From positions 2,213 to 66,212 of the forward strand of contig SDNW01000001.1 in assembly GCA_004524725.1 (NCBI GenBank): a stretch of 64,000 bases of DNA, read 5' to 3'. Shown piece after piece: positions 34,980-49,645 of this stretch. The notes below the pieces were generated by a model, which saw only the letters and a list, made by a program, of their open reading frames with translations, did no database searches and was not told where the DNA came from. Position 1 is the stretch's first letter. Each line of letters begins with the position of its first letter. This DNA is from Promethearchaeota archaeon (GTDB lineage: Archaea > Asgardarchaeota > Lokiarchaeia > Sigyniarchaeales > SOKP01). The translations under genes were made by a program, and so were the position numbers.

Positions 34980-35939
34980 CTATCTACTTTTTCCAATAAT
35001 TCTTCTTAATTCTCCGATAGTTGTTTTTAATTCTGAATATACATTATGGGGGTGAATGGATTCATAGCTTTCAATCGAAAATTTAATTTTACAATGATCC
35101 TCCAAATTTGGAAAATCGCTTAAGATAAAATTCTTTGCCATTTGCCTAACGACATCTTCAGAAAAGAGTGGATTTAGATGAGCAGTTCGCACGAGCTTTG
35201 CCTCTTCTGGTCTTTTTAAAACAGATTGCATTTTACCAGACATCGAGCCCTCAATTATATCAATTATATCTAAAACATCAATTTTATGATTGTTTAAATC
35301 TTTAATTTGAACAATGATAGTTCCTTTTGATCGTTGATTGTGAGAGCTAAAAGGTAAGATATTTAAAAGTTTCTTAATATCTTCTTCTCGCAAATTGATA
35401 TCCCTTCTATTTTTAATTATTTCTTCGGCATATTCTTGACTCATTTCTTTTGCGCAAGGACATACAGTCATACCTACAGCACTGGCACCGATATAATAAT
35501 TAAAATCAATTTCTCCAGATACGTTTTTAAAAGCTTTTACAAATGAACTGATCTTATATGACTTTTGGATATTTCTTTGTTGTTCATCTTTAGTTTGGAC
35601 CACTATTTTTCCTTCAAGTTTTACATGGACTTTTTTTGTATAGGGATGTTTTTTAAGAAGTTCTCGTGCTATTCTATCTCCTACAACTTCTACGGAGGGT
35701 GTTGGCTTGAAAATAACCTCATTTATAATTTCTTCAATTGTTTCAGAGGTGCGAGACATATGTATCCCTCGTTGTTTGGCAGGCAGAGAGATCAGAGCAG
35801 AGATCTTAGGATAAAAGGAATAGCGTTTATTTTCTTGAATGATATCGACTTTTTTTTCGACCCCTACGATTCCAACTTTATCAATCGGAATGTCGACTTT
35901 TGAGCCAGAATTCTGTAAATCTTTTTTAAAATGGCTAAT
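34980..35939 (-). CDS. mptA: GTP cyclohydrolase IV (MptA/FolE2 family)
   Basis: GMTVCPCAKEMS is present. Family-conserved N-terminal sequence (DIPIDKVGIVGVEK...LPAKQRGIHMSR) continues in frame upstream of the track's ATG at 35759 up to a TGA at 35948..35946. The only plausible initiator there is ATT 35939..35937 (see findings). Confidence 0.7.
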   Translation of the reverse strand: MSHFKKDLQNSGSKVDIPIDKVGIVGVEKKVDIIQENKRYSFYPKISALISLPAKQRGIHMSRTSETIEEIINEVIFKPTPSVEVVGDRIARELLKKHPYTKKVHVKLEGKIVVQTKDEQQRNIQKSYKISSFVKAFKNVSGEIDFNYYIGASAVGMTVCPCAKEMSQEYAEEIIKNRRDINLREEDIKKLLNILPFSSHNQRSKGTIIVQIKDLNNHKIDVLDIIDIIEGSMSGKMQSVLKRPEEAKLVRTAHLNPLFSEDVVRQMAKNFILSDFPNLEDHCKIKFSIESYESIHPHNVYSELKTTIGELRRIIGKSR

Positions 35940-36077
35940 TAAGTATCACGAACTTATATTAATTTTCCTATTTAATAAAAGTAGATATCTAATATAAAAA
36001 ATATTAATGACTAAGTTTGTTCTATTAAAGTTTAGAATTTAATTTATAAAACTATCATGCTTGTCTGATTTAGAAAA

Positions 36078-37247
36078 ATGGCGCAAAAGCATCTTTATTG
36101 TCGATTTGGGTTAATTGGAGAGAATTTAGAATTAAAACAAAATGTGAATCTATATTTCGACGAGGAAGGAATAATTACTGATTTTAAATTTGAAGAGATT
36201 GACACAGATATTACTCTTGATAGAATGCAAGAAAACTATCTTGTAATTCCTGGATTAATTAATTCTCATACTCATATAGGAGATAGTTTTGCTAAAGAAA
36301 AAGGTCACAATAAAGAATTAATTGAAGTGGTAAGTCCTCCTAATGGTATTAAACATCAACTATTACGTGAAACTGCTGAATCCGAAAAAATCAAGGGAAT
36401 AAAGTCCGCTATCCAGGAAATGATTTCGAATGGAATTACATATTTTATGGATTTCAGAGAAAATGGTGTCAAGGGGATTGAATCATTACAAAAAGCATTG
36501 AGAAATGAAAGCATTAGATGTTTAATCTTCGGACGATTTAATCAATTAGATGAAGTAAAAAAAGTTTTTAATAAATCAGATGGGATTGGACTATCTAGTT
36601 ATCATCAGCTTTCTGAAGAGTTAAAGACTGAACTTAGAACTATGAAATCATTTTCAAGTAAAAAATTAGCTTGTCATGTTGCTGAACTTAATCATGAGGA
36701 TTTTCTTTTTAAACAGATAATGGATGATGCTTTAGTAGATATAATGATCCATGGAACTCAATTAGAATCTAACGAGTTACGAAAAATTAAACAAAACAAT
36801 ATTAAACTAGTATTATGTCCGAGGAGTAATGGATATTTTGGACTTGGATATCCTCCTGTAAAAGACTTATTGGAACTAAGCATTCCCATTTCGCTAGGGA
36901 CTGATAATGTTATGGTTAATAATTTAAATTTATTTGAAGAAATGCGATATTTATATTATATTGCGAAAAACCAAATTAGAGATGATAAATCAATCAAAAT
37001 AATTGCTAAAAATATTTTTAAAATGGTAACTATTAACGCTGCAAAAAATTTTTATATTGAATCAAAGGTAGGCTCAATATCTTTGGGTAAGCTGGCTGAT
37101 TTAGTTATTATTAATTTAAATGATCCAAATTATTATTTTAATAATTTAGATAGAGATGGGTTTTTTTCATTACTTCTTCATAGGACTAATGGAAGGAATA
37201 TCAAAAGAGTATATATTGGAGGAAAATGTATATATGAAGGTAAATGA
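36078..37247 (+). CDS. metal-dependent amidohydrolase (chlorohydrolase/deaminase-like, TIM-barrel)
   Basis: It has PGLINSHTHIGDS (HxH metal site), an internal H (ACHVAE) and the late motif GTDN. The substrate is unknown. Confidence 0.7.
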   Translation: MAQKHLYCRFGLIGENLELKQNVNLYFDEEGIITDFKFEEIDTDITLDRMQENYLVIPGLINSHTHIGDSFAKEKGHNKELIEVVSPPNGIKHQLLRETAESEKIKGIKSAIQEMISNGITYFMDFRENGVKGIESLQKALRNESIRCLIFGRFNQLDEVKKVFNKSDGIGLSSYHQLSEELKTELRTMKSFSSKKLACHVAELNHEDFLFKQIMDDALVDIMIHGTQLESNELRKIKQNNIKLVLCPRSNGYFGLGYPPVKDLLELSIPISLGTDNVMVNNLNLFEEMRYLYYIAKNQIRDDKSIKIIAKNIFKMVTINAAKNFYIESKVGSISLGKLADLVIINLNDPNYYFNNLDRDGFFSLLLHRTNGRNIKRVYIGGKCIYEGK

Positions 37248-37902
37248 TAAGCCTTATATTATTTTAAGTGCCGCTATGACCATAGATGGAAAAATCGCCT
37301 CTAAACAAGGCGATACAGAGATATCTGATGATGAAGATTGGAAAGAAGTACATAAACTCAGAACCAAAGTTGATGCAATAATGGTTGGGAAAAATACCAT
37401 ATTAATCGATAATCCAAAACTTCATATCAAATTTTATTCGCATTCTGGTTATTATCGCATTATTGTAGATAGTAATTTAACGATACCAATAAACTCAAAT
37501 GTCATTACATATCAACCTGAAATATATCCAACAATCATTTGTACTACTGAGAAAGTTCCTATTGACAAAATAAATGAATATAAATCAAAAAATGTTAATG
37601 TTATTACTTCTGGCGATACTAAGCGTGTAAATATTAATTTTTTATTACCCAAGTTATATCAAATGGGTATTAGGTCAATCCTGTTAGAAGGGGGAGGAAA
37701 TCTAAATTGGAGTTTTATAAAAGAGAATTTAGTAGATGAAATAAGACTGACAATTGCTCCTTGGATTATTGGAGGAGAAGATGCGATTACCTTGGTTGAA
37801 GGAGAGGGTTTCTTACGCATGAAGGATGCACCCGGGTATCATTTATCTAAAGTTAAAACAAGAAAGAATTATCTTAAATTAAAATATTTAAAAGTAAAAT
37901 GA
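37234..37902 (+). CDS. 2,5-diamino-6-ribosylamino-4(3H)-pyrimidinone 5'-phosphate reductase (RibD C-terminal-domain family)
   Basis: YIILSAAMTIDGKIAS, VDAIMVGKNT and ILLEGGGNLNWSF are present. ATG 37234 is preferred to the track's 37156, because the 26 extra residues overlap the previous gene. Confidence 0.75.
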   Translation: MKVNDKPYIILSAAMTIDGKIASKQGDTEISDDEDWKEVHKLRTKVDAIMVGKNTILIDNPKLHIKFYSHSGYYRIIVDSNLTIPINSNVITYQPEIYPTIICTTEKVPIDKINEYKSKNVNVITSGDTKRVNINFLLPKLYQMGIRSILLEGGGNLNWSFIKENLVDEIRLTIAPWIIGGEDAITLVEGEGFLRMKDAPGYHLSKVKTRKNYLKLKYLKVK

Positions 37903-38987
37903 AAAAATCTTCCCAGAGCTTAGAAAAACTTAAATCTTTATCCTTACGTAAAATACGTCAAGAAGTAAATAATATAAATAAGGACAATAAAACTATAACT
38001 TATTCGAAGAATTTTACGATTTCACTTTCTAATTACTGTAGAAACAACTGTGGCTATTGTTTTTATAACCACCGAGTTCCAAAAGACAATGATAATGGCA
38101 TCATTGTATTAATTTCTAATTCGGATTTGGATTCATTAATTATAAAAGCAAAAAATTCCGACTGTAAAGAGGCATTACTTATGTCGGGGGAAAAACCCGA
38201 TAGTTTTGAAATTGTGAGAAATGAATTAAAAAAACGAGGTTTTAATTCATATATTGAGTTCTTGATCGAAATAAGTAACAATCTCTTAGATAATAGATTA
38301 TTACCACATACGAATATTGGTTTAATAGATTTCAAGGATCTAAAAGAGTTGAAAACTGTGAATGCCTCTATGGGATTGATGTTAGAAAGTACTTGTGAGA
38401 AATTATCAATGCAAGGAGGTGTTCATGAATTTTCTCCTGGAAAATTACCTAAAAAACGAATTCAATTTATTCAAAATGCAGGAAAACTTAAAATTCCCTT
38501 TACTACTGGTCTTTTATTAGGGATTGGCGAGGACGAAACCGATCGCATTAATGATTTATTATTAATATACAAAATCCATAAACAATATGGTCATATACAA
38601 GAAATTATATTACAAAATTATACAGAAAAACAAAATATAAAATATCACCCCATTAATCCTTTATCCATAGATGATATACTCAAAACAATCGGGATTGCTA
38701 AATTAATTATGGGAAATGAAATTGCAATACAAGTCCCTCCAAATTTATTAAAAGGCTATGAAAAAGAAGCAATATCAATGGGAATTAGCGATTTTGGAGG
38801 TATTTCTCCAGTTACAATCGATTATATCAATCCCCATCATCCATGGCCACAAGTCGAGTATTTAACAAAAATTTGTAAAAAAGAAGGATATGAATTAAAA
38901 GAACGACTACCAATATATGAGAAATTTATCAAAAAAGATGGGTTTTGCTCAGAAAAAATAAGATCTATAATTAAAAAGATAATATAG
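37899..38987 (+). CDS. cofG: FO synthase subunit 1 (radical SAM, CofG)
   Basis: ITYSKNFTISLSNYCRNNCGYCFY matches the CofG N-terminal radical-SAM motif. The ATGA start/stop overlaps the previous gene. It is adjacent to the CofH-like partner. Confidence 0.75.
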   Translation: MKKSSQSLEKLKSLSLRKIRQEVNNINKDNKTITYSKNFTISLSNYCRNNCGYCFYNHRVPKDNDNGIIVLISNSDLDSLIIKAKNSDCKEALLMSGEKPDSFEIVRNELKKRGFNSYIEFLIEISNNLLDNRLLPHTNIGLIDFKDLKELKTVNASMGLMLESTCEKLSMQGGVHEFSPGKLPKKRIQFIQNAGKLKIPFTTGLLLGIGEDETDRINDLLLIYKIHKQYGHIQEIILQNYTEKQNIKYHPINPLSIDDILKTIGIAKLIMGNEIAIQVPPNLLKGYEKEAISMGISDFGGISPVTIDYINPHHPWPQVEYLTKICKKEGYELKERLPIYEKFIKKDGFCSEKIRSIIKKII

Positions 38988-38993
38988 AGAAAA

Positions 38994-40118
38994 ATGATTT
39001 CTGAATACAAGCATATTGATCCAAAAGTTAAAGAAGTTCTCAAAAAGGCAGAGAACTCTGAGGAAATAACTAAAGAGGAGGCTTTAAAATTATTAAAAGT
39101 AACTGGTAAGGAATTTTTTGCACTCCAAAATTCTGCAAATAATCTCTGTCTTCAGAAGAAGAATGATGTTGTGACCTTTATAGTAAATCGTAACATTAAT
39201 TTTACAAATATCTGTTATCAAGGTTGTCGTTTTTGTTCTTTTAGTGTTACAAGTAAAGATGAGGATGCTTTTCTATTAAATCTTGAAGCAATCCGTGAAA
39301 AAACCCTCAAGGCCTATGAAGCTGGATGTACTGAATTATGTATTCAAGGGGGTATAAATCCAGAATTAAATTTTGAATATTACTTAAATATCTTAAAAAT
39401 CGTTAAAGAAGTGAGTAGCAATCTTCATGTTCATGCATTCTCGCCCCAAGAGATTTTCTATATGTCGAAATTACATGGAAATGATATTGAAGAAACCTTA
39501 AAGGAACTAAAGAAAGCGGGTTTAGATTCAATTCCAGGAACAGCAGCAGAAATTCTTGTTGATAAAGTACGAAAAATTATTTGCCCAAGGAAAATAAACA
39601 CATCACAATGGATTAATATTATAAAAATTGCCCATAATTTGAAAATCCCTACCACCTCAACGATGATGTATGGTCATATTGAGGACCTTACAGATCGTAT
39701 AGAACATTTAGATATTTTAAGGAACATTCAAAAGCAAACTGGGGGTTTTACTGAATTTGTCCCCCTACCTTTTGTAAACGAAAATCCCATTCTCTCAAGG
39801 TTACCAGACATCCCATTGAAGCCGCATTATGGTATGGGAGATCTTAAATTATTTTGTGTAGCACGTTTGTTTTTTAATAACTATATCGATAATATTCAAT
39901 GCTCTTGGGTAAAGCTGGGTCCGAAAATGGCTCAGATTTCATTGAATTATGGAGTAAATGATTTTTCAGGGACATTAATGGAAGAAAATATATCAAAATC
40001 AGCGGGAGCAGAATATGGAGAATATTTATCTCCACAAGAAATAATATCCATAATAAAAACTGCAGGAAAAAAACCTGCTCAAAGAGATACTGTATATAAA
40101 ATTTTAAAATACTATTAA
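38994..40118 (+). CDS. cofH: FO synthase subunit 2 (radical SAM, CofH)
   Basis: NINFTNICYQGCRFCSF is a CxxxCxxC motif. The length and collinearity fit the CofH/MqnC/MqnE clade, and the pairing with CofG supports CofH. Confidence 0.7.
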   Translation: MISEYKHIDPKVKEVLKKAENSEEITKEEALKLLKVTGKEFFALQNSANNLCLQKKNDVVTFIVNRNINFTNICYQGCRFCSFSVTSKDEDAFLLNLEAIREKTLKAYEAGCTELCIQGGINPELNFEYYLNILKIVKEVSSNLHVHAFSPQEIFYMSKLHGNDIEETLKELKKAGLDSIPGTAAEILVDKVRKIICPRKINTSQWINIIKIAHNLKIPTTSTMMYGHIEDLTDRIEHLDILRNIQKQTGGFTEFVPLPFVNENPILSRLPDIPLKPHYGMGDLKLFCVARLFFNNYIDNIQCSWVKLGPKMAQISLNYGVNDFSGTLMEENISKSAGAEYGEYLSPQEIISIIKTAGKKPAQRDTVYKILKYY

Positions 40119-40132: not shown

Positions 40133-42007
40133 TCATTTCCTTGCTTGTTCTTGAAGTAGATTAAGAATGAAATGTTGAGTGATAATATCGGAACTGATTT
40201 TACCAAGAACAATTCCCTCTTTTACTACCGGCATTGCAGAAATTTTGTATTGCTCAAGTTCTCTTACTATTTCTAACAAACTCAAATCAGGAGATGCTGT
40301 AATTACGTCCCTTGTCATAATATTTTCAAGGTTAGAAGCACTTATTCCCTCAGCAGTAGCTTTTGTTATATCCCAATCAGTTAATACCCCAATCAGTTTC
40401 TCGTTTGAAAGAACAGCAACGATTCCACTATTCTCTTTTATCATTAATTCAGCAGCTTGTTGCATATTATTTTGAACATCAATAACCGGAATAGAAACCA
40501 TGATATCTTTTGCGGTTCTTAAACTTTCCTTTCGAGAGAGGCGTTGGAGGCTTATTTGCTCAGCTGCTGCAGAAGGCAATATATCTTGATTAGCCGTCAG
40601 AATTTCAACTAATTCATTCATGTTATTCTGGATTACATTTTCTCTATATTCTCTTCCAGCTATTAATCGTTCCTTTGATAGTTTAGCAAATTGCTCGGCG
40701 TGATCCTTTAACCATTTCTCAACTTTGTCTGATTGTCCTAATATCTTTTTTGGTATTTGAAGATCATTTGGTGTTTTTATTATATGTTCTTGAGCTGCAA
40801 AAATTACACCTCCAGAATTAACTAGATAATCATTCGCAATCATTATCCCCTTTTCTCTATATACTACTTGTTCCATTACCGTTCTTGCTGCTTTCCTATT
40901 GGGATCAGGAGAATAGGTGTTTGCTCCTTCTACTATTAATGACCAATTACCTATGCGATTAACCGTCATTGAGGGGTTATCGATTTCACTTACTCCTAAA
41001 TAATTAAATATTGGTGCTGCTGGAACCATACAAAAAGCATTTTCAACAAGAAGATTATTAGGATTACTCGAATATTTAATAGGATGTTTATGACCTATTG
41101 GCATAATTTTGTTCTTAAAGTAATTAAGTGATACTATTTTTTCTTCCAACCATATATTAAATAGCTCTGCGATTGGTAAACCGCGTTTATCATAAAGATA
41201 GCCATCAATATCACTTATTCCAATAACTTTTGCTTTAGGAAGACGTTCTGTAAGTATTCTTGCAGCATGAGCCCCCACTGCCCCAAATCCTTGAATAATT
41301 AAACTAACTTCTTCTGGTTCTGGATTTTCCAATGTAGAAAATTGGGGTAGAATAGTTAGACGTGGCATTATTTTTAATAAAGTTTGTAAAGCGATCACGA
41401 CCCCTCCGGCTGCGGCACCAAGCTCATCAATCCTATTTCCTCCCATATCTGCAGTTTTAGATACTGCGCTATCAATTCCGTTTTCGATAGCAATGGTCTT
41501 CATATCCGCGTCGTTAGTTCCGACATCCGGACCAGGTACATATAGATTTTTATATCGATTGATTAATCGTGCAAAATGACGCACAATATCTGTATGTTGA
41601 TCTGAAGGAATATCTCGTTCTGCTATAATTCCAGATTTACCCCCTCCATAGGGAAGATTTGCTGCTGCATTTTTCAAAGTCATACCTCTTGCTAGGTTAT
41701 ATATATCTGAAGGTAATAAATCTGGAAGCATTCTAATTCCTCCCATACTTGGTTTACCCATCGATAAATTATCAACGACTAAATATCCACCTACTTCTAA
41801 TTTGGAGTTTTTATCCCATATACACGCTACGAGTTGGGGTCCTAATTTATCGCTTATAATCCCAATGCTGGAAAGTAGGTTTTCATCAGCCTTTGTGAAT
41901 TCTAAATAACATAAACCATTTTCTTCGAGAAGCCGGTTTTTAAGGATATTTTTAGGGAGATGTTCTTTCAGAAAGCGTTCCATATTTTTAGGAATCATTT
42001 TTACCAT
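40133..42007 (-). CDS. Glu/Leu/Phe/Val-family amino-acid dehydrogenase fused to a C-terminal CBS-domain pair
   Basis: It has the substrate domain MGGIRMLP...LARGMTLKNAAANLPYGGGKSGI and the Rossmann motif IQGFGAVGAHAA. The last ~125 aa carry two CBS repeats (VSIPVIDVQNN...GVLTDWDI and MTRDVITASPD...GKISSDII). Confidence 0.75.
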   Translation of the reverse strand: MVKMIPKNMERFLKEHLPKNILKNRLLEENGLCYLEFTKADENLLSSIGIISDKLGPQLVACIWDKNSKLEVGGYLVVDNLSMGKPSMGGIRMLPDLLPSDIYNLARGMTLKNAAANLPYGGGKSGIIAERDIPSDQHTDIVRHFARLINRYKNLYVPGPDVGTNDADMKTIAIENGIDSAVSKTADMGGNRIDELGAAAGGVVIALQTLLKIMPRLTILPQFSTLENPEPEEVSLIIQGFGAVGAHAARILTERLPKAKVIGISDIDGYLYDKRGLPIAELFNIWLEEKIVSLNYFKNKIMPIGHKHPIKYSSNPNNLLVENAFCMVPAAPIFNYLGVSEIDNPSMTVNRIGNWSLIVEGANTYSPDPNRKAARTVMEQVVYREKGIMIANDYLVNSGGVIFAAQEHIIKTPNDLQIPKKILGQSDKVEKWLKDHAEQFAKLSKERLIAGREYRENVIQNNMNELVEILTANQDILPSAAAEQISLQRLSRKESLRTAKDIMVSIPVIDVQNNMQQAAELMIKENSGIVAVLSNEKLIGVLTDWDITKATAEGISASNLENIMTRDVITASPDLSLLEIVRELEQYKISAMPVVKEGIVLGKISSDIITQHFILNLLQEQARK

Positions 42008-42125: not shown

Positions 42126-44030
42126 ATGGGGAAAAATGAAAAAAAACTTCTTGTAATTGGTATCGATCAAGCCATTCCATATCTACTTCAGAAATTTTTG
42201 AAAGAAGGGAGGCTTCCCAATATTCAAAATTTAGTCGATAATGGGGTTATTGGGGAAGGATATTCTTGTCCTCCATGTGATACACCTACTAATTGGACAA
42301 CAATCGCGACTGGAGCTACAACAGCAATTCACGGAGTAACCAGCTTTTATATGCATATTCCTGGAGAACCTCTCGATTTAGGAATGAAGTATAGATCGAG
42401 AACCCAACTCTATAATAGTTGTAAAGCACAATATCTTTGGGATATTGCTGATAGAAATGGATATAAACCGTTTGTAATTAATTATCCTTCGGGTTGGCCA
42501 AGTGAATTTAAGAATGGTGTGATGAGTTTATTTACTTGGAATATCCCTAACTCCCTACCTAAAATGCTAATTTCTTCTGAAATTATTACCATCAATTCTA
42601 ATTCAGATATTCCACTGAATAACGAAGCGATAAAGAAAGCAATTAGTAATAATATTGAGAGGTTGACTCAAAATTTAGGCATGTCAATTGAAAATACAAA
42701 TCATCTTAATCAACAAATTGTTAATTTTAATTTGAATATTAGCAATTCAAATAAGCAAATCTATGATTCATTGCAAATCAGTGTTAATAATTCTAAGAAA
42801 ATAAAAACTGTAAAAGAAAGTGAATGGAGTCAATGGATATCCGTTCAGATAGCCTCAGAACAAGGTATTCTCCCATCTCTCTTCAGAATAAAACCATTAC
42901 AAATTGAATCAAACGGAAGATCTATAAAATTAGAACGTTCTGGAGTTTATAATACAAAAGGATGGTCGGTTCCCGATTCATTTGGGGAAAAACTCGTGAA
43001 AAATGTGTTTGAATACGATCTGCCTAAAAAAAGAGAAGTAGAATTTATGATATATGGAAAGATGAAAAACTATCTGAAATCAGCTAGAAGAGAGAGTTTT
43101 ACCTTGGTTCAAGCACTTCATTTTGGTAAAAGGGATTTTAATTGGGATTTTTGCTTCTTTCACTATCATCCTTTAGATACTATCAACCACGACCTTTTAG
43201 CCTATTTACATAAAGATTCACCAGTTTATACCGAAAAGAAAGCAGAAAAAGCATTGCAGAATGTTGAAACCGCCTATCGCATCGTCGATGAAATGGTAGG
43301 AGAATTAATGAAAAGGTGTATCGATAAACATACAATTACTTTATTCATATCCGATCATGGTGCGATACCTATATGGAAAGTAGCTAATATAACTAGAATT
43401 CTAGTTGAAGCAGGATTAGTAACTTATAAGTATAATCAGGCTCAAAAGAAAAAAATTATCGATTGGAAGAAAACATTGGCATTCCCTTATATGGAACCCC
43501 CTTTTGTCTGGGTTAACCTAAAGGGAAGAGATCCCCAAGGGATAGTGGGACGAAAAGAATACGAAATAGTGAGGGAGCGGATAATTGAAGCCCTTTCTGA
43601 GGCAAAAGAGCCAGAAACAAATGAAAAAGTAATAGATATGGCGTTAAGAAGGGAGGATGCAAAAGATATGGGATTAAACGGAGATAGAATAGGAGATGTA
43701 GTGTATTTCTTAAAACCACCTTATGGAGTATTTGATGGGGATTTAGATGCTTTAGACGCGTCAAGCTTATTATTAAATGCATATAATAAACCTTTGACTT
43801 ATAATACAAAAAGATTTTTTGGAGCACACGCATATTATACACCAGATACTGTTTTTGGAGACTTTTCAGTAAGTGTGCCTGTAATAATAAATGGTAGAGG
43901 TATAAAGAAAGGAGATACCTTGAACCAAGTCATCAATTTAACTGATATTGTTCCCACCTTATCACATTTACTTAGTATTCCTAAGCCCACACACGCACAA
44001 GGAAATATCGTATACGATTTTTTAGAATGA
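42126..44030 (+). CDS. alkaline-phosphatase-superfamily protein (type I phosphodiesterase/nucleotide pyrophosphatase-like)
   Basis: It has LVIGIDQA (metal Asp), PPCDTPTNWTTIATGATTAIHG (nucleophile Thr/TG...HG) and FISDHGA (DHG). Confidence 0.65.
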   Translation: MGKNEKKLLVIGIDQAIPYLLQKFLKEGRLPNIQNLVDNGVIGEGYSCPPCDTPTNWTTIATGATTAIHGVTSFYMHIPGEPLDLGMKYRSRTQLYNSCKAQYLWDIADRNGYKPFVINYPSGWPSEFKNGVMSLFTWNIPNSLPKMLISSEIITINSNSDIPLNNEAIKKAISNNIERLTQNLGMSIENTNHLNQQIVNFNLNISNSNKQIYDSLQISVNNSKKIKTVKESEWSQWISVQIASEQGILPSLFRIKPLQIESNGRSIKLERSGVYNTKGWSVPDSFGEKLVKNVFEYDLPKKREVEFMIYGKMKNYLKSARRESFTLVQALHFGKRDFNWDFCFFHYHPLDTINHDLLAYLHKDSPVYTEKKAEKALQNVETAYRIVDEMVGELMKRCIDKHTITLFISDHGAIPIWKVANITRILVEAGLVTYKYNQAQKKKIIDWKKTLAFPYMEPPFVWVNLKGRDPQGIVGRKEYEIVRERIIEALSEAKEPETNEKVIDMALRREDAKDMGLNGDRIGDVVYFLKPPYGVFDGDLDALDASSLLLNAYNKPLTYNTKRFFGAHAYYTPDTVFGDFSVSVPVIINGRGIKKGDTLNQVINLTDIVPTLSHLLSIPKPTHAQGNIVYDFLE

Positions 44031-44032
44031 GA

Positions 44033-45616
44033 TTATTCATCTTGGATGTAAGGTTTATTCAACTCTAAGCAAATCTGAGCTCTTTCGAGTTCTCTTCCTA
44101 AATAATTAAGATGTTCATTATTTTTCGTAAGTCCTAACTGGATAAACTTTTTGCATAACGCTTCAGCATTGGTACCAATAAGGGTTTTCAAAAGCACATT
44201 TTCGTTCGAATAAAATAGTAAATAGATTTTTTTAGCATATGGTTCAACATAGATTCGAAAATAGCCATTTACATCTGGATTGTAATTTGTATTTTTCGAT
44301 TTCACGTTTAAAGCATTTGTTAGATCGATTTTTGGTATCTTTTGGCGAGTCTTTCCTTTTGATTTAAAAATAGTAATACCTTGATTGATAGGAGGAGATT
44401 TTCGATAATGTGCTAAATAATTCAATTTTACACTTTCTTTTAATTCTGAGATCCCTCCCATTAATTTTACACTGTGTTCGACTGTAAAAAGTACACCAAT
44501 ACCTAATTCAATCGCGAAACTTGCTAAAAGACCATTTATTCCTACTGAATCGATGTCCATCAGTTCAACCACATTTGAAATTCCAAAGAATAATGGCAGT
44601 TTTAATGACTTATTGCTCTTTTCACCAACCATTTTATTATATAACATATAAGAATCTAAGGAATTGCAGATCCCTGGAGAGATTGGGGTCTCTAATAATG
44701 GATCCGCGATCAACTTTTGAAACCCATTATCTTGTAAAATTTGAGTTAATTTGAATAAATTTTCGACTCGTTCCTTAGGATTTTTAGGGAAATATGCTTT
44801 TTTCATGTCAGTTGGTAAAATAACTATTGGAATTGTTTTTGGAATGTCTAAAAAGTCTTTATAGTTGCCTAAATCAAAACTAAGAATCATATCAATATCA
44901 GCATTAATTGCAGCCATAATTTCCGATTTATCCATGGAATCAATACTTAATAATACATCAAAATTACGGCGAATAGTCTTAATAATAGTAGGGATTCTTT
45001 CAGGATAAGCATTATTTGAAACACATCCAATATCAATAATATCCGCACCAGATTCAACATAATGTTTTACCTTCTTGAGAATTTTATTCTCTGATCTTTC
45101 AGTACAATTAACTATTTCTGCAATAATAGGAGGAGGGAGGTAAGGAGAAATCATAACGTTTGTTTTCCTTTTATTTATATAAAAAGAATTGCTACTGATT
45201 TCTCGTTGTGCAAGTCTCTTTTGCTCTTCTAAAATATTAGTATATTCTTTTTCTCCTGAAATTTCAATCAATTTATTTGCAGGTAATTTCCCAGAAAGCG
45301 TTATATTTTCGAGATTTTTGAGAACAAAGGGCAAATCTGAGGCAAATTCTGGTCCCTTTTTTATCTCAACCTTAAATTTTTCTTCTATTTTATTTGTATC
45401 CCATTGTACAAATCCAGGTAATAATATTAAATCATAATTAGAAACAGAAATTTTCTTTAAGATATCAATCACAATATCTTTTGTTAGGAAAGCTGAAATT
45501 GTTATTGGCGCCTTAAATACATCGATCTTATAATTTTTAATTGGTTTAATTATTTTTGAAATAATAGAAAAACTACTTGTACCGGTAATAATTAAAATAT
45601 TCTTATCCAAAATCAC
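44033..45616 (-). CDS. dihydropteroate-synthase-like pterin-binding protein (long archaeal form)
   Basis: The central TIM-barrel signature is YVESGADIIDIGCVS. The ~150-aa N-terminal and C-terminal extra domains are unassigned. Confidence 0.6.
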   Translation of the reverse strand: MILDKNILIITGTSSFSIISKIIKPIKNYKIDVFKAPITISAFLTKDIVIDILKKISVSNYDLILLPGFVQWDTNKIEEKFKVEIKKGPEFASDLPFVLKNLENITLSGKLPANKLIEISGEKEYTNILEEQKRLAQREISSNSFYINKRKTNVMISPYLPPPIIAEIVNCTERSENKILKKVKHYVESGADIIDIGCVSNNAYPERIPTIIKTIRRNFDVLLSIDSMDKSEIMAAINADIDMILSFDLGNYKDFLDIPKTIPIVILPTDMKKAYFPKNPKERVENLFKLTQILQDNGFQKLIADPLLETPISPGICNSLDSYMLYNKMVGEKSNKSLKLPLFFGISNVVELMDIDSVGINGLLASFAIELGIGVLFTVEHSVKLMGGISELKESVKLNYLAHYRKSPPINQGITIFKSKGKTRQKIPKIDLTNALNVKSKNTNYNPDVNGYFRIYVEPYAKKIYLLFYSNENVLLKTLIGTNAEALCKKFIQLGLTKNNEHLNYLGRELERAQICLELNKPYIQDE

Positions 45617-46703
45617 TCATCTGTGTTTTATCAAACGGGATGTATATATCATCTAATATCGACCCTGCTGCTTCCTTTAATCTTAGATTATCAATAATAG
45701 GCTTAAATTCTCCATCTAGTAGACCATTCGCTATAAAAGCTGCTCCTTGCGCGGCCCGTTTTGATAATTGACTATAGGTTTTCATAACACGTACGGGAGC
45801 GATATCTTTTAAATTTGAGATAATTTTTTCCCTAAGGAAGGTCAAGTTTGCCCCTCTTCCAGCTAATAAAATTTCACGTATATTGGTTCTATTACTAAAT
45901 GAAGAGGAGATAGCATAAACCGCTTTCTTTACACTTGATATATAGGCATCAAGAGCAACCTTAGTTTGTTCATCCCTCTCAGCCAAAAGCATAATTTCAT
46001 GTAAACTCAGATCTTCGTATCCTGCAATATAGGAGACTCCTCCCTTGTAGATATTCTTCTTTTTAATAGTTTTGATAAGGTATGCCAATTCTCCATCTAA
46101 ACTTCCACAAGCTTTAAATCCCATTATATTAGAACCTCCTATTCCATCAATTATTTGTCCATCTTCAATAGCTAATACTGCAGTGAATCCATAACCTATC
46201 TCTACCATGATGAAATTAGTATTTTGGGGTAATATTTGAAAAGTTTCCATTTGATCTCGAATACCTGTGACAGCAGTACAGAGTTTATCCGCTGTTCCCA
46301 TATCAATTTTATTAATTTTCCTATACCGGGGTATGGTTGGTAAATGTTTTACACCAGGAACAATTATTCCTGGAATTTTTTCTGCCTTAATTAGGCGTAA
46401 TACCTCTCCTAAGCCTATCAATTTTTCCTTCTCTTCTTTTTTAAACTTTAAAAGAGTATAATGAATATCTTTTTCAGTTAAATCATCAACATATTTTAAC
46501 GGAAGGCCAAAACCACTTGGTGCAACCATTAAATCTATATTTTTCACAGAATTTATTATGGTAATTGCTTTTTGAGGTTCTTTAATTAACTCTTGGGAGG
46601 GTATAGACGTATCAAGAATAATTTTATCATTATGTAATCCAAAAAAATCCCAGCTTAATGATCCCGGATCAATTCCAATAACGCGAAACATATGAATGTA
46701 CAA
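45603..46703 (-). CDS. ASKHA-fold (acetate/sugar kinase-Hsp70-actin superfamily) protein, DUF1464-like
   Basis: The phosphate-1 motif is VIGIDPGSLSWDF. Later Gly-rich segments are VEIGYGFTAV and ILLAGRGA. Its stop overlaps the downstream DHPS-like gene by 14 nt. Confidence 0.5.
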   Translation of the reverse strand: MYIHMFRVIGIDPGSLSWDFFGLHNDKIILDTSIPSQELIKEPQKAITIINSVKNIDLMVAPSGFGLPLKYVDDLTEKDIHYTLLKFKKEEKEKLIGLGEVLRLIKAEKIPGIIVPGVKHLPTIPRYRKINKIDMGTADKLCTAVTGIRDQMETFQILPQNTNFIMVEIGYGFTAVLAIEDGQIIDGIGGSNIMGFKACGSLDGELAYLIKTIKKKNIYKGGVSYIAGYEDLSLHEIMLLAERDEQTKVALDAYISSVKKAVYAISSSFSNRTNIREILLAGRGANLTFLREKIISNLKDIAPVRVMKTYSQLSKRAAQGAAFIANGLLDGEFKPIIDNLRLKEAAGSILDDIYIPFDKTQMSDFG

Positions 46704-46861: not shown

Positions 46862-47392
46862 ATTACTGTTGTAGATGTTTTTGTATGTAAAATTTGTGGA
46901 GAGGCATATATTGGAGAAAAAATCCCAACTCATTGTCCCTTTTGCGGAGCTCATAAAAAATATTTAGTAAAAGCTCGAGATTATGATGATACAGGAGCTT
47001 GGGAAGTAGATCTAAATGAAAAGGATAGAAAAAACGCAGAGAAAGCGTTAGAGGTTGAAATTTCTAATACTATATTCTACAAATGCGCAAGCAAAAAAAC
47101 CCCAAGTTTAGAAGGGCAGAAATTATTTAAAATATTGTCTAAAGTAGAAAATGAACATGCTTCGGTTTGGAAAAAAATTTTAAAATTAGATAAAATTGAG
47201 CTTCCAAAATATGATGCGTGTGCTTCTGAATACGTCCCGAATCTGGAAGAATCTCATTCTCGAGAAGAAAGAGCTATTAATTTCTACAAGCAAGCAGCAT
47301 CAGAATCTGCAAATCCTCGAGTACGAGAAATTTTTCAAGCTTTTGTAGAGGTAGAAACCGATCATCTCAAATTATCTGAAAAAAGACTTTAG
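46862..47392 (+). CDS. rubrerythrin-family diiron protein with N-terminal rubredoxin-like Cys4 finger
   Basis: The frame is open from 46859. VCKICGEAYIGEKIPTHCPFCGA is followed by ferritin-like ExxH motifs (ENEH, ETDH). The track reports only the C-terminal 85 aa from TTG 47135. ATT 46862 lies 6 nt after AGGTG. Confidence 0.65.
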   Translation: MTVVDVFVCKICGEAYIGEKIPTHCPFCGAHKKYLVKARDYDDTGAWEVDLNEKDRKNAEKALEVEISNTIFYKCASKKTPSLEGQKLFKILSKVENEHASVWKKILKLDKIELPKYDACASEYVPNLEESHSREERAINFYKQAASESANPRVREIFQAFVEVETDHLKLSEKRL

Positions 47393-47487: not shown

Positions 47488-48210
47488 ATGGAAGTACAAT
47501 ATCAAGATCTTGGGATTAAAGATGGTTATTTGTATGAAATAATAGCAACAACTATTTCTTTCAAGAATGATAAAAAAATCCCAAATGCTTCATGTATGGG
47601 AATAAGAATAACTAATAATAAGGTAATCATCAAACCCTATCATAATACTCAAACATATAAAAATTTAAAAGACAATTCTTTAATTTGTATCAATTTTGTG
47701 AAAGAAATTAGTTTATACACTTTAGCAGCTTTAAAGGGACCGTATCTTTCAAAGAAATACGAAAGATTCCCTCAGAAATATTATGAATATTATCACATAA
47801 AAAATAACAATAATAGCCTGAAAACTCTAAAAATAAATCAAATCCCTTACCTTAGAGACGCATGGGCAATAATTATTTGTAGAACAAAAAAATCAATAAA
47901 AATTGATAAAGAGGACGTATTTGGGCCTGTCAATCTCACTGAATTTGAATTAGAAATGCTTTCTATAGTAAAGTTAAAAGATTCATTCAAACTTTTTAAT
48001 AGAGCCGAGAATTTAACATTAGAAACACTAATTTTAACGACTAGGCTTAAAATAGCCTTTGAAAAAAATGACTATGATCTAGTGAAGGATTATCAAAGTA
48101 AAATTGATAACGGTATTAAAGAAATTATCCACTTCAATAATAATTTAGAAGTATCTAAATCAATAAATCTTATTCAAGAGTATATTAGAAATTTAAAATT
48201 GGAATTTTAA
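47488..48210 (+). CDS. hypothetical protein, possibly DUF447-like (flavin-reductase-like fold seen in methanopterin gene clusters)
   Basis: The N-terminus GYLYEIIATTISFKN...PNASCMGIRI resembles DUF447. The context lies next to mptD and the RFAP synthase gene. The assignment is weak. Confidence 0.4.
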   Translation: MEVQYQDLGIKDGYLYEIIATTISFKNDKKIPNASCMGIRITNNKVIIKPYHNTQTYKNLKDNSLICINFVKEISLYTLAALKGPYLSKKYERFPQKYYEYYHIKNNNNSLKTLKINQIPYLRDAWAIIICRTKKSIKIDKEDVFGPVNLTEFELEMLSIVKLKDSFKLFNRAENLTLETLILTTRLKIAFEKNDYDLVKDYQSKIDNGIKEIIHFNNNLEVSKSINLIQEYIRNLKLEF

Positions 48211-48584
48211 GATATTTGTTCGATATACATAAGTGGATAATTTATATCTTCAATCCATTTTATCTTAGCTTTAACTTTTACTGATTCATATTCTAAATCA
48301 ATTTCTGCGTTAATAATTTCCCCCGATATATCATCGTAGGCAAATTCAGTTTTTTTATCTCCAATAATCTTGGCTTTATTAAGAAAAATTCTTACATTTT
48401 TTACATATGGTTGGCAAGAAATAGAAGCTTGAATCCCTTTCTCAATAGATTTTATGATATCATCATTTGAAGAGATCGGAATACCGCATAAAATATGATA
48501 AAGCGCTCCCAGCTTGATTCCCACTTCAAAGCAAGCTCTTTCTCTTTTAGAAAGATTTGCAGGAAAAAAGTTGTCTATTGACAT
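48207..48584 (-). CDS. mptD: archaeal-type 7,8-dihydroneopterin aldolase (MptD family), tentative
   Basis: The 125-aa protein has RERACFEVGIKLGALYHILCGIP, which resembles the conserved core of the archaeal DHNA family. It shows TAATG coupling with the upstream RFAP synthase gene. Confidence 0.55.
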   Translation of the reverse strand: MSIDNFFPANLSKRERACFEVGIKLGALYHILCGIPISSNDDIIKSIEKGIQASISCQPYVKNVRIFLNKAKIIGDKKTEFAYDDISGEIINAEIDLEYESVKVKAKIKWIEDINYPLMYIEQIS

Positions 48585-49645
48585 TAATCATCATCCAAAT
48601 ATTCGATTTTAGCCCCAAAATTGTTTGGCTTACAAATATATATGTGCCCTCCAGAACCACTTATCAGTTTTTGAACTTCTTTTAGTAATGCATTAGCCTC
48701 TTCATCTGATTCTGTTATTGCAACAACACTGGGTCCAAATGAAGACATGCCATAGGCTTTAACGTCACAGTCCTCAAAGAAATTCAAAATTTCTTTGACT
48801 ATTTCGTGTTGAAGATCAATTTCAATTCTTTTAAATCCAATAGATTGAATTCTTTTTAATCCTTCTCCAAAACAAACAATATCATTTTTAAGAATTCCAG
48901 GTATAATTTTCATTAATATTTGATGAGAGACCTCGTTTACTTCATTTTTAGGAATTGGAGCATGACTTTGGAAGATACTTACCTCCTCATCCCCGTACGC
49001 TCCTTTTTCCACATTAGGAATTACTAACACAAAACGCCAATGTTCCGGAATTGGATAGCTAAATAAAGTAAGGGCAGGATCCGCAGATGTGGAAGCAGAG
49101 GATGGCAGAAAAGTTTCTTTTTCTTTTCCAATCCCAAATTCATGGCCTCCATCGACAATGAATCCCCCACTCTCAAATCCTCTCCAACCTATACCCGAAG
49201 TACCACCACGTTCCATAAGTTTTGTTAACTTTTTTATTGAAATGTCATCAATTTGCTTTAATTTCATAATTGCAGTAGCAATTGCAAGCGATAATTGAGT
49301 TTTAGAACCTAATCCTACATGGCTTGGATAGTATCGTTTTAAAGAAAAATGAAAGTTTTTATTACTAATGTTAAAGGTTTTAAACACTTTAGAAGCTTTT
49401 TCATTGATAACTTCTATCGATTCCTTATAATATTTATGAGCCTCAATTTTAAATTCCTCAGCGTGATTTGAGGCTTCGAATACAACATTAGGGCGGTCTA
49501 ACATTAACCCAATGCCCCCATCGATTCTATTTGTGTAGCCATTCTCATCTATTAAGGATAGATGTATCCGACAGGGCGTTGTTATCCTTATTTTCATACT
49601 TATTATATAAGATAATTTTAAAGCTAAGATTATGAATTCTTTCAA
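48584..49645 (-). CDS. mptG: beta-ribofuranosylaminobenzene 5'-phosphate (beta-RFAP) synthase, GHMP-kinase fold
   Basis: RITTPCRIHLSLIDENGYTNRIDGGIGLMLDRP and GLGSKTQLSLA match my recollection of the beta-RFAP synthase family, which catalyses the first committed step of methanopterin biosynthesis. Confidence 0.7.
   Translation of the reverse strand: MKEFIILALKLSYIISMKIRITTPCRIHLSLIDENGYTNRIDGGIGLMLDRPNVVFEASNHAEEFKIEAHKYYKESIEVINEKASKVFKTFNISNKNFHFSLKRYYPSHVGLGSKTQLSLAIATAIMKLKQIDDISIKKLTKLMERGGTSGIGWRGFESGGFIVDGGHEFGIGKEKETFLPSSASTSADPALTLFSYPIPEHWRFVLVIPNVEKGAYGDEEVSIFQSHAPIPKNEVNEVSHQILMKIIPGILKNDIVCFGEGLKRIQSIGFKRIEIDLQHEIVKEILNFFEDCDVKAYGMSSFGPSVVAITESDEEANALLKEVQKLISGSGGHIYICKPNNFGAKIEYLDDD

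Follow-up and report, generated by a model that had tools for sequence, protein, structure and literature searches.

A conserved Asgard-archaeal gene cluster that probably unites methanopterin-like pterin and FO biosynthesis

Genes at the locus

The window considered here is a 64-kb stretch of DNA from a Promethearchaeota (Lokiarchaeota) MAG, in agreement with the Lokiarchaeota affinity suggested by the preliminary description. Between positions 34980 and 49645, open reading frames and Pfam/NCBIfam searches place mptA, arfC, cofG, cofH, a DHPS-like gene of the TIGR00284 type, mptD and mptG together, and all seven enzymes (MptA, ArfC, CofG, CofH, DHPS-like, MptD and beta-RFAP synthase) score above curated HMM cut-offs. 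Interspersed with these are genes for DUF1464, DUF447, an amidohydrolase, a GDH-like-CBS fusion, an AP-superfamily enzyme and a rubrerythrin. Every gene named in the preliminary description was found at its position, and its family assignments hold at curated thresholds. Together with two flanking genes, the features are as follows (scores against cut-offs in brackets).

33825..34964, plus strand: conserved 379-aa protein (unk379), convergent with mptA
34980..35939, minus strand: mptA, GTP cyclohydrolase of the MptA/IB type, 319 aa (TIGR00294, 265.1 vs 220)
36078..37247, plus strand: amidohydrolase-superfamily deaminase-like enzyme, first in the FO operon (Amidohydro_1, 136 bits)
37234..37902, plus strand: arfC (TIGR01508, 196.7 vs 186.45)
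37899..38987, plus strand: cofG, FO synthase subunit (NF004884, 391.3 vs 209; TIGR03550, 371.4 vs 213)
38994..40118, plus strand: cofH, FO synthase subunit (NF005609, 468.6 vs 426; TIGR03551, 463.1 vs 374)
40133..42007, minus strand: ELFV-type amino-acid dehydrogenase fused to a CBS pair (GDH-CBS), 624 aa (Pfam ELFV_dehydrog_N, ELFV_dehydrog, two CBS)
42126..44030, plus strand: AP-superfamily (NPP/Phosphodiest) enzyme, 634 aa (PF01663, 109 bits)
44033..45616, minus strand: DHPS-like pterin-binding protein of the MJ0301/MptH type (TIGR00284, 293.7 vs 256.65)
45603..46703, minus strand: DUF1464, ASKHA-fold (butyrate-kinase-like) putative ATP-dependent enzyme (PF07318, 299 bits)
46862..47392, plus strand: rubrerythrin-like protein, 176 aa (tblastn with the L001 orthologue: 177 aa, 67% identity, single frame)
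47488..48210, plus strand: DUF447-family protein (DUF447_N, 44.6 vs 24)
48207..48584, minus strand: mptD, archaeal dihydroneopterin aldolase (PF04038, 110.5 vs 25)
48584..49645, minus strand: mptG, beta-RFAP synthase (NF040726, 335.3 vs 328; TIGR00144, 302.6 vs 113.5)
52311..53690, minus strand: AIR-synthase (PurM)-superfamily protein (Pfam AIRS, AIRS_C), beyond the 34980-49645 interval first described

Overlaps or very short gaps between genes indicate co-translation. The amidohydrolase gene overlaps arfC by 14 nt and arfC overlaps cofG by 4 nt, a 14-nt overlap couples translation of the DUF1464 and DHPS-like genes, and mptG and mptD share 1 nt in the TAATG at 48584 that had been pointed out before. 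The likely start of arfC is the ATG at 37234, with GGAGGA upstream and the overlap with the amidohydrolase stop, while the longest ORF begins at 37156; that of mptG is likely the ATG at 49597. Limited to its ATG, the mptA ORF (34980-35759) reaches 220.1 on TIGR00294 against the cut-off of 220, and 265.1 with the N-terminus extended up to the ATT at 35939; the full-length protein covers model positions 2-300 of 302, and the 60 codons upstream of the ATG ORF carry synonymous changes only relative to locus L003. As FolE2, MptA scores 134.5, under the cut-off of 215. The ATT start of mptA (35939-35937) is conserved in about 30 species. The rubrerythrin gene, given as 85 aa only by the ORF finder, in truth encodes 176 aa, with an N-terminal rubredoxin-type CxxC...CxxC motif; its start is an ATT that aligns with the ATG of orthologues.

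Family assignments

The earlier naming of mptG as a beta-RFAP synthase gene holds at the equivalog level (NF040726), marginally, with 7 bits to spare. Mutagenesis of MTH0830 has shown that residues D19 and R26 are required (PMC6787355), and the equivalents of both are kept here, as 'SLIDENGYTNRIDGG'. The DHPS-like protein has the domain order DUF6513, Pterin_bind and DUF4346, with a C-terminal domain that also matches MtrA; as a canonical DHPS it scores 36 on TIGR01496 (cut-off 162.6). Family profiles searched against the PDB lead from DUF1464 to butyrate kinase (E 1.5e-6) and from the DUF447 orthologues to 2ptf (MTH_863, E 5e-15), 2nr4 and 2iml. The GDH-CBS fusion retains the catalytic motifs 'MTLKNAAANLPYGGGKSG' and 'PGPDVGT', and the Lys for the glutamate gamma-carboxyl is replaced by Met ('PSMGGIR' vs 'PTKGGIR'); all curated GDH models stay far under cut-off (84 vs 620). 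The nucleophile region of the AP-like enzyme, 'CDTPTNWTTIATG', aligns with PafA.

Conservation across genomes

In a scan of species-representative genomes, identical gene order was found in 57 Asgard species. The clustering is not due to chance; this order is kept among orthologues that are just 43-78% identical. Neighbours were counted around DUF1464, over loci with enough flank among these 57 species-level genomes, giving cofH in 39/43, cofG in 37/42, arfC in 36/40, the amidohydrolase in 34/39, DUF447 in 34/47 and mptG in 27/39. DUF1464 itself has a median identity of 75% across Asgard species and adjoins the DHPS-like gene in all 54 of 54 loci; similarly, DUF447 adjoins mptD in 30/30 and the amidohydrolase adjoins arfC in 34/36. 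The interspersed genes had been put forward as pathway members, and conservation backs this for the amidohydrolase, for GDH-CBS (between the DHPS-like gene and cofH in 34/45 loci, median identity 69%) and for rubrerythrin (beside DUF1464 in 33/51). The AP-like gene, an occasional member at the equivalent position in 8/46 loci, is backed weakly.

Beyond these loci, linkage is confined to the pterin half (MptG, DUF1464, DHPS-like and MptA, with or without DUF447), namely in cultured Lokiarchaeia, Thermoproteota, some Chloroflexi and Caldisericota. The loci of MK-D1 and L. ossiferum hold AIRS-like, MptG, MptD, DUF447, DUF1464 and DHPS-like genes, and MK-D1 additionally carries an AfpA/DmrX-like flavoprotein. 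In Baldr, Jord and Thermoproteota the linked set is MptG, DUF1464, DHPS-like and MptA. In two Anaerolineae loci a FolK-MptA fusion is found with DHPS-like, MptG and DUF1464, and with DUF447 in one of the two; the Caldisericota locus matches them in gene content, with an equally long MptA homologue. Linkage of DUF1464 with mptG, mptA and the DHPS-like gene is seen in Asgard, Thermoproteota and Chloroflexi loci.

A candidate for the missing deaminase

ArfC is the archaeal 2,5-diamino-6-(ribosylamino)-4(3H)-pyrimidinone 5'-phosphate reductase, of the RibD_C type. The preliminary description took the reductase product to be the CofG/CofH substrate, which is incorrect: ArfC yields 2,5-diamino-6-ribitylamino-4(3H)-pyrimidinone 5'-phosphate, and one deamination and one dephosphorylation lie between this and the CofH substrate. 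The archaeal pathway is without an assigned deaminase or phosphatase (PMC5397151, PMC8305020). The amidohydrolase most likely fills the deaminase gap, acting on the ArfC product. It has the complete HxH, HxxE, H, D catalytic set of COG0402-type deaminases (guanine, isocytosine, MTA/SAH, 5'-deoxyadenosine), and these residues (H64xH66, H200xxE203, H225, D276) are invariant in 95% or more of the 40 orthologues from the loci and in 38/38 database homologues. Its AF2 model (pLDDT 91) also shares their fold, with adenosine/MTA, guanine and isocytosine deaminases as best PDB neighbours in Foldseek (TM about 0.8). The ring on which the isocytosine and guanine deaminases act is a 2-amino-4-oxopyrimidine, as in the proposed substrate. 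What sets the protein apart from COG0402-type deaminases is a gene context unique to the FO operon; no curated NCBIfam cut-off is reached, the closest model being PRK07213 'chlorohydrolase' (249, under the cut-off of 294). Two points count against a pathway deaminase: 5'-deoxyadenosine/MTA-type deaminases are also among the closest structural neighbours, and another candidate for the archaeal enzyme, 'PyrD' (MJ0699), is in the literature.

Proposed pathways

The region is, in all probability, a conserved Asgard-archaeal cofactor-biosynthesis supercluster uniting two GTP-derived pathways, one to a methanopterin-like pterin and one to FO. We infer cofactor production, and likewise substrates for the amidohydrolase, DUF1464, DUF447, the PurM-like protein, GDH-CBS, the AP-like enzyme and rubrerythrin. 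The first module would be the FO branch, a tightly packed operon of amidohydrolase, arfC, cofG and cofH. Here, ArfC would reduce the ribosyl-diaminopyrimidinone phosphate, and the amidohydrolase most likely strips the 2-amino group to give 5-amino-6-ribitylaminouracil 5'-phosphate. A phosphatase would then free the CofH substrate, a role in which the AP-like enzyme may serve where present, and CofH and CofG would form FO, the F420 chromophore, with tyrosine. The second module, with mptA divergent from the first, would be the pterin/arylamine branch: MptA and MptD are predicted to make the 6-hydroxymethyl-dihydropterin core and MptG the ribofuranosyl-aminobenzene phosphate, and the MJ0301-type DHPS-like protein would join the two. 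Three conserved partners, the ASKHA ATPase DUF1464, DUF447 and the PurM-like protein nearby, probably catalyse ATP-dependent or redox reactions of side-chain synthesis that have no assigned enzyme.

Pfam and NCBIfam searches of the 64-kb window gave no cofC/D/E, mptB, mptE or any H4MPT- or F420-dependent enzyme, and full pathways are therefore not demonstrated for the genome; of the F420 pathway the window covers only the section to FO, and of the H4MPT pathway only the early steps. Of the capacity for both cofactors claimed earlier, the early genes stand and the later ones are absent from the window. This capacity is already published for Asgard archaea (PMC8498797, PMC9982363), and the value of the cluster lies in its conserved genes as candidates for gaps in both pathways.

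Alternative explanations

Inherited synteny, as opposed to functional coupling, could account for part of the conservation. It is doubtful, if conceivable, that it is what mainly keeps the cluster together, with GDH-CBS, rubrerythrin, AP-like, PurM-like and LarE as housekeeping neighbours lacking a cofactor role. PadR, HAAS and unk379 have no plausible cofactor role and are conserved alongside, as is LarE, which also looks unrelated; the DUF447-rubrerythrin slot is often filled by an unrelated glycyl-radical-enzyme insertion, some genomes have other genes in the interval from cofH to the DHPS-like gene, and the AP-like gene is scarce. However, the order persists despite divergence of the proteins, it breaks just beyond the block (JAB is in only 2 loci), and DUF1464, DUF447 and the PurM-like gene adjoin mptG and the DHPS-like gene even in phyla that share nothing else, bacteria included. 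Somewhat less probable is that the amidohydrolase is a DadD-like 5'-deoxyadenosine/MTA/SAH deaminase clearing an inhibitory by-product of the radical-SAM enzymes CofG and CofH. In Foldseek it comes closest to MTA/adenosine deaminases (4gbd, 4dzh, 4dyk, 4f0r, TM0936), and one locus (L051) lacks cofG, cofH and the amidohydrolase alike, with arfC still in place. The NCBIfam 5'-deoxyadenosine deaminase model does match, but at 108 bits it is far under the cut-off of 522, and the protein forms a family of its own from which guanine deaminases are equally distant. It is also translationally coupled to arfC rather than to cofG/H (34/36 loci), which resembles the bacterial RibD deaminase-reductase fusion and would not be needed by a general salvage enzyme.

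It is quite unlikely that the product of the pterin genes is a folate-like carrier, or another pterin, in place of a methanopterin-type cofactor, as argued for haloarchaeal MptA/RFAP-synthase homologues. MptA and MptD serve folate and methanopterin synthesis alike, the MptG-like proteins of haloarchaea probably do not produce RFAP (PMC8305020), and the MptG score is marginal. Yet MptG meets an equivalog model, which is not expected of a 30%-identical haloarchaeal homologue, and is 70-83% conserved across these Asgard species with its D19 and R26 equivalents; the DHPS-like protein, with its MtrA-matching DUF4346, is of the TIGR00284/MJ0301 type and not FolP; and H4MPT-dependent Wood-Ljungdahl enzymes are reported from Lokiarchaeia (PMC9982363, PMC8498797). 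That CofG and CofH are truly the futalosine-pathway (menaquinone) radical-SAM enzymes MqnE and MqnC is extremely improbable. CofH, MqnC and MqnE are close paralogues, and CofH scores 378 on MqnC and 358 on MqnE, but both values are below the cut-offs (428 and 434), and the protein clears the two CofH models; CofG exceeds its own cut-off by about 180 bits, and the two genes share an operon with arfC. The CofG/CofH identity first proposed is borne out by these HMM scores.

Comparison with known systems

A methanogen precedent for pterin-FO linkage exists in MptA (MTH1196) and CofG (MTH1198; table in PMC3087415). The methanopterin genes of M. jannaschii (MptA MJ0775, MptD MJ0408, MptG MJ1427, DHPS-like MJ0301) belong to identical families, pass the same curated models and follow the same logic, in which a pterin core from GTP is condensed with an aryl-ribosyl phosphate by a DHPS-like enzyme. 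The Asgard genes differ in being clustered and joined to FO genes, in a non-methanogen, with MptB and MptE absent from the cluster and DUF1464, DUF447 and PurM-like as conserved partners there. ArfC, CofG and CofH are orthologous to those of FO/F420 loci (cofG/cofH, fbiC) and of the ArfA/ArfB/ArfC branch; unlike FO/F420 and archaeal riboflavin systems, the Asgard cluster lacks nearby arfA/arfB or cofC/D/E. The deaminase-like gene directly before the reductase recalls the RibD deaminase-reductase fusion, although it belongs to the amidohydrolase superfamily, whereas RibD and Rib2 have the cytidine-deaminase fold. Methylotroph H4MPT/methylofuran islands also include a DHPS-like gene. Unlike the Asgard cluster, they carry C1-transfer enzymes and methylofuran genes (MfnB/E/F homologues) and are without FO genes, and DUF1464 is not reported from them. 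These 'archaeal-like' islands are similar to the present cluster in grouping C1-carrier cofactor genes, including mptG (PMC8141765 and works cited there).

Flanking genes

The unk379 protein has no Pfam or NCBIfam match; its orthologue follows mptA in about 30 loci, with a median identity of 55%. On the other side, the AIRS-like protein meets no curated NCBIfam cut-off, and its family profile finds HypE in the PDB (5.5e-9). In many Asgard loci, those of MK-D1 and L. ossiferum among them, its gene is a neighbour of mptG, and relative to these the HAAS-PadR-LarE-AIRS block (49720-53690) is inverted here.

Gene content of the cluster

An open reading frame listing combined with Pfam and NCBIfam scans recovered every gene of the preliminary description where it had been placed.

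Genes of the cluster in the window, with model scores and, where given, cut-offs

34980-35939, minus strand: MptA; TIGR00294, 265.1 against a cut-off of 220
36078-37247, plus strand: amidohydrolase; Amidohydro_1, 136 bits
37234-37902, plus strand: ArfC; TIGR01508, 196.7 against 186.45 (equivalog level)
37899-38987, plus strand: CofG; NF004884, 391.3 against 209
38994-40118, plus strand: CofH; NF005609, 468.6 against 426
40133-42007, minus strand: ELFV-dehydrogenase domain with two CBS domains (GDH-CBS); Pfam
42126-44030, plus strand: alkaline-phosphatase-superfamily 'Phosphodiest' protein (AP-like); PF01663, 109 bits
44033-45616, minus strand: MJ0301-type DHPS-like protein; TIGR00284, 293.7 against 256.65
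45603-46703, minus strand: DUF1464; PF07318, 299 bits
46862-47392, plus strand: rubrerythrin
47488-48210, plus strand: DUF447; DUF447_N, 44.6 against 24
48207-48584, minus strand: MptD; PF04038, 110.5 bits
48584-49645, minus strand: beta-RFAP synthase MptG; NF040726, 335.3 against 328

The sequence bears out the TAATG junction described for mptG and mptD. Three further gene pairs overlap: DUF1464 and the DHPS-like gene share 14 nt, as do the end of the amidohydrolase gene and arfC when arfC is read from its likely ATG (37234, with GGAGGA ahead of it), and arfC and cofG share 4 nt. The MptA protein read from an ATT start matches TIGR00294 over model positions 2-300 of 302, while the ATG open reading frame scores 220.1 against the cut-off of 220; the score with the FolE2 model (134.5) is below its cut-off of 215. 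Enzymes of the MptA class are Fe(II)-dependent and yield 7,8-dihydroneopterin 2',3'-cyclic phosphate, as the window protein would be predicted to do. MptD matches its family over model positions 1-108 of 108 (gathering cut-off 25). The DHPS-like protein is not a canonical FolP (DHPS model TIGR01496, 36.2 against 162.6), and TIGR00284, which it does match, is a 'hypothetical equivalog' model.

The reading of CofG and CofH as FO synthase, as opposed to MqnE and MqnC, holds up. CofG exceeds the NF004884 cut-off by about 180 bits and also passes TIGR03550 (371.4 against 213.35). CofH passes a second model (463.1 against 374.1) besides NF005609, and stays below the cut-offs for both MqnC (378 against 428.1) and MqnE (358.3 against 434.55). 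In the same way, the gene resembling RFAP synthase can be called mptG. It passes its equivalog model, if narrowly, and the subfamily model TIGR00144 easily (302.6 against 113.5). Mutagenesis of MTH0830 from M. thermautotrophicus has shown that D19 and R26 are required for beta-RFAP synthase activity (PMC6787355). Both residues are retained here in the N-terminal motif 'SLIDENGYTNRIDGGIG', where D and R stand seven residues apart with the spacing of 'D...GERGRLDGG'; the retained pair, spaced as in MTH0830, can also be displayed as 'SLIDENGYTNRIDGG'. Within the 64-kb window, HMM scans found no cofC, cofD or cofE (or fbiA, fbiB or fbiD), nor were H4MPT- or F420-dependent enzymes (such as mer, mtd, mch, ftr or fwd products) found there. 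Searches of the window for Rfam families and tRNA genes gave no matches.

Conservation among Asgard archaea

The contexts of four amidohydrolase homologues have the same core gene set as the window. For a broader view, the DUF1464 family alignment was used to scan one genome per species (GTDB), giving 80 loci onto which all window proteins were mapped. In 57 species the DUF1464 protein shares 62-88% identity with the window copy; their metagenome-assembled genomes carry the labels Prometh-/Lokiarchaeota, Thor-, Hod-, Hermod- and Odinarchaeota. The gene order in these species is HAAS, PadR, LarE, an AIR-synthase-like (PurM-like) protein, MptG, MptD, DUF447, [rubrerythrin], DUF1464, DHPS-like, [AP-like], GDH-CBS, CofH, CofG, ArfC, amidohydrolase, MptA, and finally unk379, a conserved 379-aa protein without a family match.

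Presence of cluster genes (loci with the gene / loci with enough flank)

DHPS-like: 54/54
CofH: 39/43
CofG: 37/42
ArfC: 36/40
amidohydrolase: 34/39
GDH-CBS: 34/45
rubrerythrin: 33/51
DUF447: 34/47
MptG: 27/39
AP-like: 8/46

Since the orthologues have diverged from the window proteins to median identities of only 43-78%, and since synteny stops directly beyond the block, the arrangement is maintained and not simply inherited recently. GDH-CBS and rubrerythrin might be regarded as incidental insertions, an explanation that was set aside as insufficient because both recur in most loci. They may have a functional role, or may have been kept in place by inherited synteny.

Two slots in the block take up foreign genes. 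The slot between DUF447 and rubrerythrin often holds a glycyl-radical enzyme and its activase, and the slot around cofH holds other genes in some genomes. As an example of the former, locus L020 carries an insertion of about 6 kb (3112-8857) with a glycyl-radical (PFL-like) enzyme, a radical-SAM activase and two further genes, and insertions are found at the equivalent positions in L014, L015, L017, L027 and L083; the window has none. Window positions 49720-53690 encode a HAAS membrane protein, a PadR regulator, a LarE-like PP-loop ATPase and the PurM-like protein. This block adjoins mptG in many Asgard genomes, and its orientation in the window is inverted compared with most of them.

The pterin half in other lineages

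Outside the 57 species only the pterin half stays together; the union of the pterin genes with the FO operon characterizes a single large Asgard group. In Promethearchaeum syntrophicum MK-D1 and Lokiarchaeum ossiferum only the pterin half is present (PurM-like, MptG, MptD, DUF447, DUF1464 and DHPS-like), with DUF1464 proteins that are only 45-48% identical to that of the window. In MK-D1, a 190-aa AfpA/DmrX-like flavoprotein is encoded between DUF1464 and the DHPS-like gene (L065 11123-11695), with a score for TIGR02700, 'dihydromethanopterin reductase', of 137, under the cut-off of 251. Baldr-, Jord- and Thermoproteota loci contain MptG, DUF1464, DHPS-like and MptA. The same four genes are found in bacteria, in two loci from Anaerolineae (L076, L077) and one from Caldisericota (L080), with DUF447 also present in L076 and L080. 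In L076 (6596-8077) an HMM scan identified a FolK-MptA fusion (TIGR00294 308.9, folK 138.7), and the MptA homologues in L077 (4898-6406) and L080 (6510-7997) are of equal length. These loci suggest that Chloroflexi and Caldisericota acquired a methanopterin-type pterin pathway by transfer. In Methanothermobacter, MptA and CofG bear the locus numbers MTH1196 and MTH1198, respectively (table in PMC3087415), a hint at the same linkage of pterin and FO genes as in the Asgard cluster.

Apparent ATT start codons

No ATG, GTG or TTG stands at the true start of either mptA or the rubrerythrin gene, and their conserved N-termini begin at ATT instead.

Apparent ATT starts in the window

35937-35939, minus strand: mptA
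46862-46864, plus strand: rubrerythrin

For mptA this pattern recurs in about 30 Asgard species, for rubrerythrin in about 20 (loci include L003, L010, L012, L014, L016, L022, L023, L026, L030-L032, L063 and others). Often the ATT comes right after an in-frame stop codon; it has a Shine-Dalgarno-like GGTGA 6-9 nt upstream, and some orthologues have ATG at the aligned position. Judged from these sequences, both genes appear to initiate at ATT (Ile). Read-through of upstream stop codons, the alternative to initiation at ATT, was rejected because in several loci two or three stop codons lie directly upstream and no conserved coding sequence is found there. Standard gene callers shorten or miss such genes; they report MptA as 259 instead of 319 aa, and what had been an 85-aa 'rubrerythrin fragment' is actually the full gene with an ATT start. 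In the window as a whole, 3-4 of about 12 Shine-Dalgarno-led gene starts look like ATT or ATA. In L001 (16219-17787) the DHPS-like gene was called at 444 aa, and the stop-to-stop open reading frame, which abuts DUF1464, aligns over 99% of the 527-aa protein of the window; this is probably another mis-called start.

Candidate functions of the amidohydrolase

The preliminary description took the product of the reductase to be the substrate of CofH. This is wrong, as ArfC yields 2,5-diamino-ribityl-pyrimidinone phosphate, and one deamination and one dephosphorylation are needed to get from there to the CofH substrate. Guanine and isocytosine deaminases act on substrates that share the same 2-amino-4-oxopyrimidine ring. 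A confirmed deaminase and phosphatase are both missing from the archaeal riboflavin/FO branch (PMC5397151, PMC8305020); another deaminase candidate published for archaea is 'PyrD'/MJ0699. The amidohydrolase of the window has all the metal ligands and the HxxE proton-shuttle motif of COG0402-type amidohydrolase deaminases. H64/H66, H200-x-x-E203, H225 and D276 are kept in at least 95% of 40 locus orthologues, and the HxH, HxxE, His and Asp set is invariant in 38 database homologues. The AF2 model (pLDDT 91) has as its top structural neighbours in the PDB, at a TM score of about 0.8, COG0402-group deaminases and dechlorinases, including MTA/adenosine, guanine and isocytosine deaminases.

Based on this active site and these neighbours, on the missing archaeal deaminase, on co-translation with arfC and on the shared ring, we put the likelihood that the amidohydrolase is the pathway deaminase at slightly less than even. 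No named equivalog model reaches its cut-off, the best being PRK07213 (249.3 against 294); DadD scores 108 against 522 and guanine deaminase 79.9 against 375. A DadD-like 5'-deoxyadenosine deaminase serving CofG and CofH is the rival explanation, which we hold to be unlikely. A formamidase of the ArfB/BrbF type is also less likely, as the known ones are creatininase-family enzymes (PMC9478397) and the protein here has the deaminase HxxE motif.

Candidate functions of GDH-CBS, DUF1464, PurM-like and DUF447

For these four proteins, as for the amidohydrolase, substrates and roles are predicted. The dehydrogenase domain of GDH-CBS fails all glutamate dehydrogenase models (best 83.9 against 620). 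It retains the catalytic Lys and Asp motifs, and has Met in 'PSMGGIR' where glutamate dehydrogenases have Lys, and Ala in 'GGVIFA' where they have Ser. In structures of glutamate and leucine dehydrogenases, these Lys and Ser positions are the ones that bind the gamma-carboxyl group of glutamate in the former. GDH-CBS probably oxidizes or forms a non-acidic amino acid as a dehydrogenase and carries a CBS sensor pair; that it supplies tyrosine for CofH is a guess.

DUF1464 is of the ASKHA type. In a profile comparison it resembles butyrate kinase 1x9j only remotely (E 1.5e-6), and its score for the butyrate/acetate kinase model NF002834 (27.7) does not reach the cut-off of 222. Its AF2 model is of low quality (pLDDT 55) because the homologues used were all at least 75% identical. 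The family is small (522 clusters at 50% identity, E up to 0.001), and given that the pterin-half genes stay together elsewhere, DUF1464, DUF447 and the PurM-like protein behave as genes of the methanopterin-type pathway. DUF1464 could be thought to replace the pterin pyrophosphokinase (MptE/FolK). This is unlikely, since it adjoins the FolK-MptA fusion in L076, so that FolK already supplies HPPK activity in the bacterial cluster.

A family profile compared with the PDB places HypE, PurM and ThiL nearest to the PurM-like protein. In the chemistry of the PurM superfamily an oxygen is activated through phosphorylation and then displaced by an amine, and a phenol-to-aniline step has been reported for the arylamine branch of methanopterin synthesis; by analogy, the PurM-like protein would fit this step. 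DUF447 matches the solved proteins MTH_863, 2nr4 and 2iml, and the solved structures of the family are, we assume, FMN-bound.

Significance for archaeal cofactor synthesis

Taken jointly, the conserved cluster genes that have no assigned step may encode those reactions of archaeal cofactor synthesis for which genes are still missing, a reading that we consider rather doubtful as a whole. The pyrimidine deaminase of the riboflavin/FO branch, long missing in archaea, would then be the amidohydrolase. Methanopterin side-chain steps would fall to the ASKHA ATPase DUF1464, to the PurM-like protein and to DUF447; such steps include turning the phenol of ribofuranosyl-hydroxybenzene phosphate into an aniline at the expense of ATP, and reducing the ribofuranosyl group to ribitol. 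The non-glutamate dehydrogenase-CBS fusion would supply the pathway, for instance with tyrosine for CofH, or regulate it.

The interpretation in terms of H4MPT and F420 is not new: earlier work on Asgard archaea, including Lokiarchaeia, has described biosynthesis genes for both cofactors together with the matching Wood-Ljungdahl enzymes (PMC8498797, PMC9982363). In a literature search of incomplete coverage, neither the conserved joint cluster nor its accessory genes were found described. Metabolic models of Asgard archaea are built on the H4MPT-dependent Wood-Ljungdahl pathway and on F420, and we know of no chemical demonstration of either cofactor in these organisms. One conserved locus with the committed genes of both pathways offers a compact marker for cofactor capacity, and the supercluster is a practical target for heterologous expression. 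The more useful result is the set of conserved partners, which are concrete candidates for unassigned archaeal enzymes and narrow the search for the deaminase (and phosphatase) of the riboflavin/FO branch and for several methanopterin side-chain steps. Methanogens share these pathway gaps, and the scattering of their genes makes the search harder there.

Other genes in the window

The amidohydrolase has 100% identity to a protein (EU531_00220) of a 'Promethearchaeota archaeon' metagenome-assembled genome, encoded on an 84-kb contig, which confirms a lokiarchaeotal origin. Eukaryote-signature genes are found just upstream of the cluster (28962-33804) and also at 15636-16529.

Eukaryote-signature genes

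28962-29741 and 30748-31083: two ubiquitin-domain proteins
31149-32381: E1-like ThiF protein
32998-33804: JAB/MPN deubiquitinase-like protein
15636-16529: Ras/Roc GTPase

A 152-aa PNPOx-like split-barrel protein (21512-21970, minus strand) is conserved near the cluster in relatives, beside AlaRS and FtsZ; some members of this fold family use F420, with no sign of such use for the window protein. Between 2983 and 9163, a gene for a 201-aa rhodopsin-family protein (PF01036, 2983-3588) adjoins two HdrB-like CCG-domain proteins (4035-5979), and the region also encodes three thioredoxin-fold proteins and a pyridine-nucleotide-disulfide oxidoreductase. The open reading frame at 4035 has a possible alternative start at a Shine-Dalgarno-led ATA (3990). 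Finally, an archaeal lipid-synthesis trio made up of a UbiA-family prenyltransferase, PcrB (GGGP synthase family) and geranylgeranyl reductase is located at 57415-60539.
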